This document shows positions 5,537 to 53,477 of a stretch of DNA of 64,000 nucleotides, piece by piece; position 1 is the stretch's first letter; every line of letters starts with the position of its first letter. The notes under the pieces are model-generated. The model was given only the letters and a program-made list of their open reading frames with translations. It was not told the DNA's origin and made no database searches. Both the position numbers and the translations under genes were made by a program. Source of the stretch: Promethearchaeota archaeon (lineage in GTDB: Archaea; Asgardarchaeota; Lokiarchaeia; Sigyniarchaeales; SOKP01); the NCBI GenBank assembly GCA_016839585.1, contig JAEOTZ010000018.1:32001-96000 (forward strand), in the 5' to 3' direction.

Positions 5537-6730
5537 ATGGTGTTAGATGACTTTGGCAAAAATTATTTACTTCTTGGTCTCCGAATAGGGAAACTAATAG
5601 AGGGGTATATCGATGCTTATTTTGGACCACCAGAATTGAAATATACTGTTGAGAAAGAGAAACCACACTCCCCTAAAGATTTACTTAATAAATGTAAAGC
5701 ACTTCAAAAGGAATTACCTAATCAAGATTTTATTAAAGAACGTATCAGATTCCTAGGAAAAATGCTTGGAGCCATGGAAACTTCATTAGAGATACTTAAT
5801 GGACATGAAATTCCATATTTAGAGAAAGTTAATAGATTATACGATATTAAACCAGAGTTAATTGATGATTCTGTATTTTATAATGTAGCTAAAGAGTTAG
5901 ATAGTATATATGAAGGATCTAGTAGTCTAGCTGAACGTATGGATATAGTTCAGAAACGGAGGGCTGTACCTGAAAATAAAATTGAAGGAATTTTTAGAAG
6001 AGCTTGTGAAATTGTGCGTAAACGTACACTAGAATTATTTCCTGGCTTATTACCTAATGAAGAAGAATTTACCATCAAAATAGTCAAAAATGAACCTTGG
6101 GGTGCATATAACTGGTATTTAGGTAACTTTAAATCTAGAATAGATGTAAATACTGATATTCCCAATGCTTGGACTAGAATTTTATTAACTGCTGCTCATG
6201 AGGGATACCCTGGTCATCATACTGAGCATGTTGTTAAAGAAAAATTACTTTATATTGAAGAACAACGGTTTGAACATAGTATATTATTAAACCAAACACC
6301 TGAATGTGTAATTGCAGAGGGTATTGGAAACACAGGACTCGATGTCTTATTTTCTCAACGTGAAAAGGTAAAAATAGGTCTTGAAGAATTATGTCCAGAT
6401 CCCCAAAAGGAATTTTCTTTAGATGTATTGGTAAGTGAAATCGAGGCTAAAAAGAATCGTTGGGCTTTAATGAATAATTTAGCAATTCACGCTCATGTAG
6501 ACGGTTGGTCTGATGATCAATTAATAAAATATGGATTAGATTTTGGTTTTGTTATAGAAGAGCGTCTTAGACAAAACTTACTGTTCATTCGCAATCCTTT
6601 ATGGTCAACCTATGTCTTTAATTATTTTATAGGTGAAATGTTGATTAAAAAGAAATTTGGAGAACGTCCTTCTCCTTCTGATTTTAAAAAACTCCTAGCT
6701 CAGCCAATATTACCCTCGGATCTTATATAA
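5537..6730 (+). CDS. DUF885-like putative metallopeptidase
   Basis: AHEGYPGHH motif with downstream AEG. Confidence 0.65.
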   Translation: MVLDDFGKNYLLLGLRIGKLIEGYIDAYFGPPELKYTVEKEKPHSPKDLLNKCKALQKELPNQDFIKERIRFLGKMLGAMETSLEILNGHEIPYLEKVNRLYDIKPELIDDSVFYNVAKELDSIYEGSSSLAERMDIVQKRRAVPENKIEGIFRRACEIVRKRTLELFPGLLPNEEEFTIKIVKNEPWGAYNWYLGNFKSRIDVNTDIPNAWTRILLTAAHEGYPGHHTEHVVKEKLLYIEEQRFEHSILLNQTPECVIAEGIGNTGLDVLFSQREKVKIGLEELCPDPQKEFSLDVLVSEIEAKKNRWALMNNLAIHAHVDGWSDDQLIKYGLDFGFVIEERLRQNLLFIRNPLWSTYVFNYFIGEMLIKKKFGERPSPSDFKKLLAQPILPSDLI

Positions 6731-10600: not shown

Positions 10601-11638
10601 GTGGCTAAAAGAATATCGATCAATGGATTCGGAAGGATTGGGCGCAATTTTTTTCGCGCGTTATCGGAAAAATATCCCAATGATATCGAAGTTGTTTCCA
10701 TTAATGATTTGTTTGAACCCAAATATCTAGCTTATGTCTTAAAATACGATACAGTATTTGGAAGATTTCAGGGTACTGTCGAGTCTAATGAAAATGCGTT
10801 AGTTGTGAATGGGAAAGAAATTCCAATCACAGCTGAGAGAGATCCAGCAAATTTACCACATTCGAGTAATAATATTGATGTAGCAGTAGAATGTACTGGA
10901 TTCTTTACTAAAAGAGAAGGTGCCGCAAAGCATTTAGAAGCAGGGGCTAAACGAGTCCTTATCAGTGCACCTGCCGTTAATCCAGACTTTACTGTCGTTA
11001 TCGGGTGTAATGATGATAAATTAACTAATGAGCATAAAATTATCAGTATGGCGAGCTGTACTACTAATTGTTTAGGTCCTGTAGTAAAAGTGTTAAATGA
11101 CAATTATAAAATACAAAGCGGTATTATGACCACAATTCACTCATACACCGGTGATCAGAGAACTGTGGATACCGCACGAGCAGGAGATCCTGTAAAGATG
11201 ATTAGAGGAAGAGGCGCCGCTGCAAATATTTTACCAACAAGTACTGGAGCGGCAAAAGCAATTGGTGTAGTCTTTCCAGAGTTGAACGGTAAGCTAGATG
11301 GTATAGCAATGCGTGTCCCAACACCAGATGGATCAGTAGTAGATTTAAAATGTAATGTAGAAAAAAGAGCGACAGCAACAGATATTAATAATAAAATGAA
11401 AGAATATGCAAATGGACAATTAAAAGGAATTTTAGAATATACTGACGATGCGATTGTAAGTAGCGATATAATAGGAAATCCAGCGAGTTCTATTTTCTCT
11501 TCACTATGGACAAAAGTTATAGGGAGTATGGTTGGCGTAGTCTCGTGGTAATCTTGCTACAATTAGTAAAAAGACCATATTGATAATGAATGGGGCTTCT
11601 CGAACCGTATGGCTGATTTGATCGTTCAAAAATTATAG
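10601..11638 (+). CDS. gap: Class I (bacterial/eukaryote-type) glyceraldehyde-3-phosphate dehydrogenase, predicted spliced CDS join(10601..11550,11581..11638), 335 aa
   Basis: NGFGRIGR, ASCTTNCL catalytic motif, TGAAKA, RVPT. The ORF stops at VVSW*, but the missing C-terminus DNEWGFSNRMADLIVQKL* is encoded in the same frame at 11582-11638. Confidence 0.93.
11551..11580 (+). other. Predicted 30-nt bulge-helix-bulge (archaeal tRNA-type) intron in gap mRNA
   Basis: Central 4-bp helix GUGG(11545-48)/CCAU(11575-78); 3-nt bulges UAA(11549-51) and AUU(11579-81); intron helix UCUU/AAGA capped by GCUA-caau-UAGU; exon pairs UC/GA. Cutting after the second nt of each bulge gives TGG TA|T GAT AAT GAA TGG = WYDNEW. 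Confidence 0.88.
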
Positions 11639-11835: not shown

Positions 11836-12255
11836 ATGAATGTTGAAAAAATAAAGAAAGTATTAACAGAAATTTTATTAGAAAATAAGGAGATTATCGC
11901 ATCCTATCTTTATGGTTCTGTATTATACAGTGATTTATATGAAGATATTGATGTTGGATTATTAATTAGCGATATTTTTAAACCGAAACTAATGTATGAA
12001 GCAAAAATAGCTGGAAAATTAGAAAAAAAGCTTAGAGATACTTTTGGGGAGATTAAACCAGTAGATGTTAGAATTTTAAATGACAAACCTTTAAGATTTC
12101 TTTTTTCAATGCTTAAAAATTCTAAAATTATTTGCTCGAGTGATGAGACCAAAAGAATTAAATTTGAAGCAGAAGTTATGAAAGAATATTTAGATATTAA
12201 GCCACATTTCGAAATTTATGATAAGATGAGAGAGTTAAGATATGCAAATAGATAG
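11836..12255 (+). CDS. Minimal nucleotidyltransferase (MNT/MntA-type antitoxin)
   Basis: YLYGS...DIDVG, VDVRILN; overlaps the downstream HEPN gene. Confidence 0.88.
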   Translation: MNVEKIKKVLTEILLENKEIIASYLYGSVLYSDLYEDIDVGLLISDIFKPKLMYEAKIAGKLEKKLRDTFGEIKPVDVRILNDKPLRFLFSMLKNSKIICSSDETKRIKFEAEVMKEYLDIKPHFEIYDKMRELRYANR

Positions 12256-12664
12256 AGAATTAATTCATGGAAAAATAGATATTATTGAACGAAATATTAC
12301 CTTTTTAAATACATATAAAGAAAAGAGTGAAGTTGAAATTTTAAGTAGCTATAAAGATGTTCAAGCTATTAAATATTCACTATTTGAAATAATTGAAGCT
12401 TGCATTGATATTGCGTCGCATATAATTTCTGGTAAAGGCCTTCAAAGAGCCGAAAGTTATGCTGAAATGTTTGAGATTCTTGGAAAAAATGATATTTTAA
12501 AAACTCAATTGAGTAAAGAATTATCCAATATGGCAAGATTCAGAAATGTCCTTGTTCATGGATATGCTAAAATTGATAATTCTAAGATTCTTGTTTTTAC
12601 AAAAGAAAAACTAATAGATGTGGAAAATTTTATTAAAGCAATAATAGAATTAATAAAAGAATAA
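12242..12664 (+). CDS. HEPN/DUF86 RNase toxin (HepT-like)
   Basis: RFRNVLVHGY (Rx4H-Y motif); paired with MNT. Confidence 0.88.
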   Translation: MQIDRELIHGKIDIIERNITFLNTYKEKSEVEILSSYKDVQAIKYSLFEIIEACIDIASHIISGKGLQRAESYAEMFEILGKNDILKTQLSKELSNMARFRNVLVHGYAKIDNSKILVFTKEKLIDVENFIKAIIELIKE

Positions 12665-52946: not shown

Positions 52947-53477
52947 ATATTTCCAATCTTTCACGTAGCACTTCCATTGATTATCTTTGAAATCCCTCAA
53001 ATAAAGAAATTTAATCTTAATAGATATTCATTAATAATTGGTTCATTATTACCAGATTTAATTGATAAACCTTTATTATTTTTAGGTTTGGGAGCAGGTA
53101 GATTTCTATCACATTCCTTAATATTTATTTTTATTATCTTTTTAATTATTTTTGGAATTACTAAAGGAAATGAAAAAGTTTCTTTACCACTTTTAATTGG
53201 AATGATTTTTCATGTTATATTAGATCTTCCCGATGTTCCATTACTTTTTCCTTTTATCTCCTTTGAATATATAGTTCTAGAAGACCCCTTTTCAGTTTGG
53301 ATTACTGCTTTGTTAACAAATACTATAGTGATAATAACTGAAATTACTGGAATTCTATTTATTGTATTTATTTTAATAAGAAATAAATTATACCATATAA
53401 AAGATATTACAAATTATTTAAAAGGCATTAATCAACCATTAATTAAGAGGACCAAAGAAAAAGATATAAATATCTAA
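52947..53477 (+). CDS. Membrane metal-dependent hydrolase (YdjM/DUF457-like), likely starting upstream of the called TTG
   Basis: GSLLPDLIDKP, RFLSHS, HVILD; the in-frame upstream extension IFPIFHVALP supplies the N-terminal His. Confidence 0.75.
   Translation: MFPIFHVALPLIIFEIPQIKKFNLNRYSLIIGSLLPDLIDKPLLFLGLGAGRFLSHSLIFIFIIFLIIFGITKGNEKVSLPLLIGMIFHVILDLPDVPLLFPFISFEYIVLEDPFSVWITALLTNTIVIITEITGILFIVFILIRNKLYHIKDITNYLKGINQPLIKRTKEKDINI

Follow-up and report, generated by a model that had tools for sequence, protein, structure and literature searches.

The closest described counterpart of the element analysed here is the bulge-helix-bulge (BHB) intron of the cbf5 pre-mRNA in Desulfurococcales and Sulfolobales (Watanabe 2002; Yoshinari 2006; Yokobori 2009, PMC2738675). 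It is a single, old intron, vertically inherited with losses, and its splicing has been demonstrated; it is the only BHB intron inside archaeal coding sequence documented in the literature that we found. The HVO_1309 mRNA of Haloferax carries a BHB intron in its 5' UTR, outside the coding sequence, where it alters expression and not the reading frame, and the paper describing it names cbf5 as the only earlier mRNA example (PMC7714728). The gap gene of a Promethearchaeota archaeon, presented here, would, like HVO_1309, give an mRNA substrate of the tRNA splicing endonuclease. It shares with cbf5 a short BHB intron within a conserved codon, predicted to be cut between bulge bases 2 and 3 by a two-subunit EndA. 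Unlike that of cbf5, however, the gap intron has a patchy distribution, is not shared by alleles that are 98% identical and is one of about 12 in its genome, and its splicing is deduced from sequence.

Two further systems bear on how such an intron may arrive. The tRNA genes of Asgard archaea have gained BHB introns repeatedly and independently, by no general route that could be found (bioRxiv 10.64898/2026.10.13.758758). Lineage, motif and enzymes are those of our case, but the preprint deals with tRNA genes only, the word "mRNA" is absent from it, and flank co-conversion lay outside its tests (bioRxiv 10.64898/2026.10.13.758758); silent sites in coding genes can reveal such co-conversion. 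In the 16S rRNA of Thermoproteales, the hairpin intron Pog.S1205 (Pyrobaculum) undergoes co-conversion through the homing endonuclease encoded by Pog.S1213 (PMC4496867). It resembles the gap insert in being a hairpin BHB intron of less than 50 nt, lacking an ORF and, apparently in both cases, spreading laterally with flanking bases. Its mobility is driven by a neighbouring LAGLIDADG intron, whereas neither an endonuclease intron nor a linked nuclease was found for gap. In the literature searched, which lay mostly outside subscription papers, we found no report of mRNA introns in Asgard archaea.

The initial annotation of this locus had turned to a eukaryotic comparison, proposing that a stop-laden insert makes GAPDH activity depend on splicing in a HAC1/XBP1-like switch. 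HAC1/XBP1 mRNAs are cut not by the tRNA endonuclease but by IRE1, which stress activates, at a pair of 7-nt loops; their splicing is conserved across eukaryotes, and XBP1 is ligated by RtcB. Both systems would be protein-only ways of cutting and joining an mRNA whose unspliced form encodes a different product. The gap insert differs in that it has a BHB motif for the housekeeping EndA, in that no sensor was found, and in that the intron is not conserved. We favour another reading, with a probability of roughly 0.75: gap mRNA would contain a live housekeeping BHB intron, recently gained and most likely recombined in from the intron-bearing allele of another lineage.

Results

The gap gene and its insert

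The gene occupies 10601-11638 of the window, that is, of the whole 64,000-nt stretch of DNA that was analysed. Its product is a class I GAPDH (profile TIGR01534, 385 bits, above the cut-off) with both the catalytic ASCTTNC and the WYDNE motifs, and its homologues are labelled Promethearchaeota/Lokiarchaeota. A 30-nt insert at 11551-11580 splits the Tyr codon of WYDNE. The unspliced frame ends VSW-stop and reads on as W-stop-SCYN-stop-stop-KDHIDNEW. The sequence thus agrees with the initial description of a frame-preserving insert with three stops (TAA 11549, TAG 11564, TAA 11567), the first being the 5' bulge itself (TA-A at 11549-11551 in this allele, the hyphen marking the predicted cut). 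That first stop consists of the TA of the Tyr codon and the usual first intron A, and three or more stops arise in shuffled inserts with a P of 0.11, which becomes 0.17 when the first A is kept constant; the number of stops is therefore unremarkable. Among 20 candidate 30-nt deletions tested, only that of 11551-11580 regains W-Y-D-N-E; it gives a 335-aa ORF (10601-11638, stop TAG 11636-11638) whose junction matches the intron-less alleles base for base. The unspliced product has 316 aa, and it is as a 316-aa protein that databases carry this GAPDH. The features of the locus are:

10601-11550, plus strand: gap exon 1, codons 1-316 and the TA of Tyr317 (TIGR01534, 385 bits; sole GAPDH found in the genome)
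11551-11580, plus strand: predicted BHB intron, 30 nt, comprising 1 bulge base, a 23-nt hairpin, a 4-nt central-helix strand and 2 bulge bases (single WYDNE-restoring register; missing from 98%-identical alleles; covariation in same-site alleles)
11581-11638, plus strand: gap exon 2, YDNEWGFSNRMADLIVQKL, stop TAG 11636-11638 (pN far below pS; in a structure model, end of strand 310-317 and helix 321-333)
11543-11548, plus strand: TC (11543-44) and GTGG (11545-48), from the Ser codon TCG and the Trp codon, forming the 5' sides of exon helix and central helix respectively (partners GA 11582-83 and CCAT 11575-78)
11549-11551, plus strand: 5' bulge TA-A, predicted 5' splice site and first in-frame stop (from the sequence)
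11552-11574, plus strand: intron hairpin TCTT/AAGA, TAC/GTA, with a 5-nt loop, containing TAG 11564 and TAA 11567 (9/9 pairs change on both sides among alleles)
11575-11581, plus strand: central helix 3' strand CCAT and 3' bulge AT-T, predicted 3' splice site (register; same-site alleles; covariation)
11542-11608, plus strand: tract of silent exon changes round the intron, at 11542-11545, 11590, 11596, 11599, 11602 and 11608 (9 differences in 40 exon bases versus 5 in 528 upstream, P ~1e-10), read as co-converted donor DNA

The register that restores WYDNE is also the one that the bulge-helix-bulge predicts, with a 4-bp central helix (GTGG/CCAT), two 3-nt bulges (TAA and ATT) and an exon helix TC/GA. 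A 4-bp central helix together with four inner pairs occurred in 0.1% of shuffled inserts. In nearest-neighbour folding of a short stretch the central helix forms with pair probabilities of 0.86-0.99; the exon helix, of just 2 bp, is not favoured in free folding. The strict BHB lies 6.1 kcal/mol above the minimum free fold, a difference that drops to 2.3 when the 2-bp exon helix is left out, so that splicing of gap could be slow; the value of 6.1 falls within the 0.1-8.3 kcal/mol of other inserts of the class. The genome, which is 99% complete, encodes two EndA paralogues (PF01974), one with the GADFVVY/H/RK motifs, and a single intact RtcB gene (PF01139) without stops. The features of archaeal BHB introns that were tested (helices, bulges, register, EndA and RtcB genes) were thus all found. 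Promoter and terminator scans gave results at chance level. A MntA-HepT toxin-antitoxin pair directly follows the gene (11836-12664); it is present in L201 and absent from L200 and L204, and so varies between close strains and independently of the intron.

Inserts at the same site in other alleles

A metagenome pattern scan and a search for truncated proteins recovered eight further alleles interrupted at the very same base (L185, L189, L193, L197, L203, L207, L208 and L214), and the sequence of L202 ends inside an insert at that site. Of 14 pattern matches in metagenomes 10 were judged chance; the pattern gave only chance matches in genome contigs and no match in viral contigs. The inserts fully read are 29 or 30 nt long and differ strongly, with no conserved intron sequence among them, although L189 and L197, whose hosts belong to different clades, have similar 29-nt introns. 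Each allele contains one to three stops, and all seven in-frame alleles have at least one. The bulge stop itself is not conserved, since the 5' bulge of L207 and L208 is TA-T and lacks it.

What these alleles keep is structure. When aligned, 86.5% of cells are paired versus 30-43% in slid controls, a lenient comparison, as the structure was drawn from the same sequences; the covariation score was reached by none of 500 shuffles. All nine inner-stem pairs show two-sided changes, 89% of central-helix cells are paired (L208 has a weak helix, with 2/4 pairs), and the exon helix TC/GA is unchanged in the seven distinct aligned alleles. Different inserts at one base with covarying pairs very probably represent a spliced intron, and the retention of structure rather than sequence is as expected of a live splicing substrate. 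Overall, 11551-11580 is very probably a real intron.

It might be argued that the insert is unspliced and gap newly dead, a pseudogene in progress. A very recent insert would leave exon 2 without decay, and class I GAPDH was not found in 12/54 genomes of the genus, and G015 retains only a remnant of the 3' end. We consider this highly improbable, because nine alleles carry different inserts at one base with the motif kept by compensatory change, several of them sit on long branches with exon 2 intact, only 7 frameshift events were seen among 1832 aligned genes, and pgk is intact in this genome. An assembly or sequencing artefact deserves almost no weight: the exact insert was seen in this assembly only, but different inserts of like geometry occur at that base in independent assemblies.

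Consequences for the enzyme

The earlier observation that the downstream exon shows no decay is borne out, with pN of 0.04-0.13 against pS of 0.41-0.95 in comparisons with eight relatives. The exon 2 protein is identical to that of the intron-less alleles P0002-P0019. We also considered whether the whole of exon 2 came from a distant clade with a WGFSNRM motif; this is ruled out, as near-identical intron-less alleles share the exon 2 protein. The YDNE segment and final helix do fall in exon 2, as had been stated: Y317, D318, N319 and E320 are invariant among 40 relatives, and the model places the end of the last strand (310-317) and the last helix (321-333) there. This model is alignment-based, a single-sequence fold reaching a pLDDT of only 31. 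We infer that the 316-aa unspliced product is inactive.

A second, intron-free GAPDH, whose presence the initial annotation had proposed to check, was not found in this genome, class I or II, with the queries used. Sequence evidence supports the view that removal of the intron is needed to make full-length GAPDH. The gene need not be essential, since the 12/54 genus genomes in which class I GAPDH was not found include some that are more than 90% complete. In G015, a member of the genus that is 95% complete, only the last ~25 GAPDH codons remain (L053:2490-2610, contig C65), and the gene looks lost.

Arrival of the intron

Only one of the 126 class genomes with a gap gene that were examined, the present one, has stops within gap. 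In a DNA tree built on exon 1, with the insertion site left out, this allele is placed among nine that lack the intron, with a branch length of 0.007, and the hypothesis that intron alleles form a single clade is rejected (p-AU 3e-9, six changes). The intron-less alleles are 97.6-98.2% identical to it in DNA. The tree thus indicates that the intron is a recent gain in this lineage.

The flanks suggest how it was gained. From its nearest intron-less allele the gene differs at 18 of 1008 nt, and half of these differences (9/18) lie within -9 to +27 of the insertion site. All nine are silent: -9 to -6 (GTT AGC to GTC TCG), +9, +15, +18, +21 and +27. This amounts to 9 differences in the 40 exon bases at the site against an upstream background of 5 in 528 (P ~1e-10). 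The empty alleles agree at 7/9 of the tract positions, so the state seen here is the derived one. Comparable tracts lie beside the introns of L185 (P 5e-7) and L193 (2e-6) when each is set against its own kin, and none was found among intron-less control alleles. The exon helix and the first central-helix base are provided by the serine codon TCG. This codon is present in 8/9 intron alleles and in none of 27 intron-less ones, counts in which kin are not independent; genome-wide it makes up 5% of Ser codons. Two intron alleles of another clade match the tract most closely; no donor was found for the whole of it, the best having 5-6 mismatches in 44 nt. Other introns show a similar pattern. All six of the introns that are present here, absent from the closest genome (G043) and comparable with it have 5-15 flank mismatches per 40 nt, where the median window has 2; these flanks rank in the top 0.4-27% of windows and come from four genes, so they are not six independent tests. 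Besides gap, raised flank divergence is seen at five intron sites. Genome-wide, the GAPDH tract itself falls only within the top 13.5% of windows. The single intron that both genomes share has the same sequence in each; the 100 nt before it contain 1 difference, whereas downstream of it the gene is ~10% different. Genes of the two genomes are patchy mosaics everywhere, as in pfk, where near-identical patches alternate with patches 15-20% divergent. Some flank tracts could therefore be coincidence, and ordinary short-patch recombination may suffice to move introns.

Lateral arrival with co-converted flanks is, on these sequences, rather probable, and its simplest reading is homologous recombination with short co-conversion. 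The intron could instead have arisen in place, or repeatedly at a favourable site, the flank changes being due to error-prone repair or later selection. The strong differences between intron sequences and the failure of any donor to fit the whole tract speak for such an origin. Even so, it seems unlikely to us: AGC to TCG takes three changes, yet TCG is common to intron alleles of separate clades, the two nearest tract matches are both intron alleles, and L189 and L197 share similar introns in hosts of different clades. Recombination from an intron-bearing allele remains our preferred route.

Of the features of homing introns, gap has the co-conversion tract (-9 to +27; also in L185 and L193); a homing endonuclease in or linked to the intron was not found in a search that covered inserts of up to 45 nt. 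PF00961 is absent, and PF14528 matches lie on contigs other than that of gap. A search of this genome and of its relative G006 for a source of intron sequences gave nothing convincing, an 18-nt AT-rich match in G006 being taken as chance. A LAGLIDADG_3 match lies in a free 243-aa ORF (C20:18099-18242; L217:1087-1818). Others (C27, C33, C53 and C84) lie inside frames of 600-700 aa and may be inteins, and in C33 and C53 such matches and mRNA introns occur within ~1.3 kb. L211 and L212 carry a 125-nt block of dense differences from other close alleles at -284 to -159 from the GAPDH splice site, a recombination patch without an intron.

Inserts in other genes

A census by motif-free spliced alignment of 1832 proteins of G006 onto this genome detected, in unrelated coding genes, ~12 inserts that measure 25-40 nt and whose flanks are conserved. 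It is a lower bound, as 83% of G006 was used and introns common to both genomes are missed. The interrupted genes include those for thioredoxin, two small GTPases, Sm, pfk, dnaG, a CoA-transferase (two inserts), a 665-aa ligase-like gene, a small Cys-rich protein and an Fe-S oxidoreductase. Besides that of gap, the BHB-type inserts of this genome, all of 25-40 nt in coding genes, lie at:

C25: 15416-15440
C43: 72715-72743
C53: 4382-4411, 10855-10886 and 10955-10984
C62: 43149-43178
C33: 8087-8116 and 20954-20984
C59: near 53203-53232
C27: 6607-6637
C61: 45771-45810

Five inserts of the same class were obtained from G006 by the reverse alignment:

C1: 1129379-1129406, 1621948-1621977, 2599625-2599654, 1505072-1505101 and 1410020-1410049

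Judged by motif, the genes interrupted in G006 are those for uL11, a zinc-ribbon protein, NAD synthetase, cis-prenyltransferase and a CinA/molybdopterin-binding protein. The canonical BHB rule is passed by 11/18 listed inserts against 2.5% in the null. A reference-free scan for BHB plus ORF had no excess (5699 matches versus 5593-5752 for control geometries). One census entry, C5-52627, was removed as what we judge to be probably a tRNA read on the wrong strand. As further observations, pfk (L219:677-1900 versus L220) is interrupted here by two introns, 31 and 30 nt long, whereas that of G043 is intron-free; in databases, many pfk entries have a length of 357 or 265 aa, probably from gene calls truncated by introns; and the orthologue of the C33 Fe-S oxidoreductase in G017 (C19:203193-204497) has one internal TAA, perhaps another intron. 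ARAGORN finds only 18 tRNA genes in the genome, a number to be expected if several introns interrupt most tRNAs; one of its calls has a 1376-nt "intron" (C50:48710-50179).

Every census insert truncates the product or shifts the frame. Truncation results from 88% of random AT-rich inserts of 25-40 nt, and stops are present in 10/10 in-frame census inserts (joint P ~0.003); only 3/48 stop-free in-frame inserts pass the BHB rule, about the chance rate. This suggests that stops may be selected class-wide, as a fail-safe, and not for GAPDH in particular. In-frame eukaryotic introns likewise have a stop bias. One could go further and suppose a passive, global coupling, in which, whenever EndA or RtcB is limiting, truncated proteins would come from at least a dozen mRNAs (gap, pfk, dnaG, Sm, thioredoxin, small GTPases) alike, the in-frame stops having been selected against a full-length protein with a 10-residue insert. 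The stop counts in the census and in the seven in-frame same-site alleles agree with this, as do the rarity of stop-free inserts passing the rule and the interruption of two glycolytic genes, gap and pfk. We nevertheless find it improbable, as the sets of interrupted genes differ among this genome, G043 and G006, unlike a regulon, and the A-richness of bulges and ascertainment may account for part of the stop excess. It is compatible with a constitutively spliced, recently gained intron, from which it differs only on whether splicing is ever limiting.

The census also bears on the switch. The initial annotation had supposed that EndA/RtcB activity could gate glycolytic or gluconeogenic flux; splicing of gap would then be tuned by a signal, as HAC1/XBP1 splicing gates the unfolded-protein response. 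Its premise of a splicing-dependent GAPDH stands, in that the intron is of tRNA type, the GAPDH is the sole one found and the EndA and RtcB genes are present; the regulated gate is not supported, given a recent gain in one of 126 class genomes. In favour of a gap-specific switch, this only GAPDH found loses invariant residues when unspliced, the strict BHB competes with other folds, and the cbf5 intron has been proposed as a negative regulator (PMC2738675). But the intron is missing from 98%-identical alleles, its sequence is not conserved, the number of stops (one to three) and the first stop differ between alleles, and the fold competition is typical of the insert class (0.1-8.3 kcal/mol). 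With ~12 unrelated genes carrying the same type of insert, GAPDH is not special. The IRE1 cleavage consensus CNGCNGN has no match in 11531-11600, where the junctions sit in bulges, and the IRE1 RNase (KEN) domain PF06479 gave no match in a search run without a working positive control. We thus regard a HAC1/XBP1-like switch as very improbable, and splicing of gap as quite likely to be mainly constitutive.

Discussion

We infer that the gap intron is spliced, constitutively, and that it came by recombination. In the mechanism that we propose, the two-subunit tRNA splicing endonuclease would cut after base 2 of each bulge, between 11550 and 11551 and between 11580 and 11581, and RtcB would ligate the exons, giving TAT (Tyr317) and the 335-aa enzyme. 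RNA left unspliced would yield the 316-aa product, which lacks both YDNE and the last helix. The intron would be tolerated because it is spliced, and not retained for regulation. It would have entered the lineage recently, most likely by homologous recombination with an intron-bearing allele of another lineage, in a patch that also took in exon sequence, ~10 nt upstream and ~30 nt downstream, and with it the AGC-to-TCG change that builds the motif.

A broader proposal, to which we give even odds, is that Promethearchaeia hold a shifting population of protein-spliced mRNA introns of 25-40 nt, at least a dozen per genome. These would be non-coding yet mobile as patches of 60-80 nt, comprising the intron and recoded flanks that build the motif, possibly by means of a nuclease or of short-fragment recombination. 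GAPDH would then be a transfer caught at less than 1% divergence, and the obligatory stops a fail-safe against unspliced products.

What is new here is that one allele has the intron and 98%-identical ones lack it, and that its arrival has left a footprint. A regulatory switch, if true, would be of greater consequence, but the evidence speaks against it, and the interest of the locus lies in the class of mRNA introns and in the transfer footprint. If such introns are many, gene calls in these archaea would be truncated, as is the GAPDH that databases carry with 316 aa. The GAPDH case makes the spread of archaeal introns testable with strain-level genomes, and many mRNA introns in the archaea closest to eukaryotes would mean that an intron-rich mRNA population can be sustained without a spliceosome.
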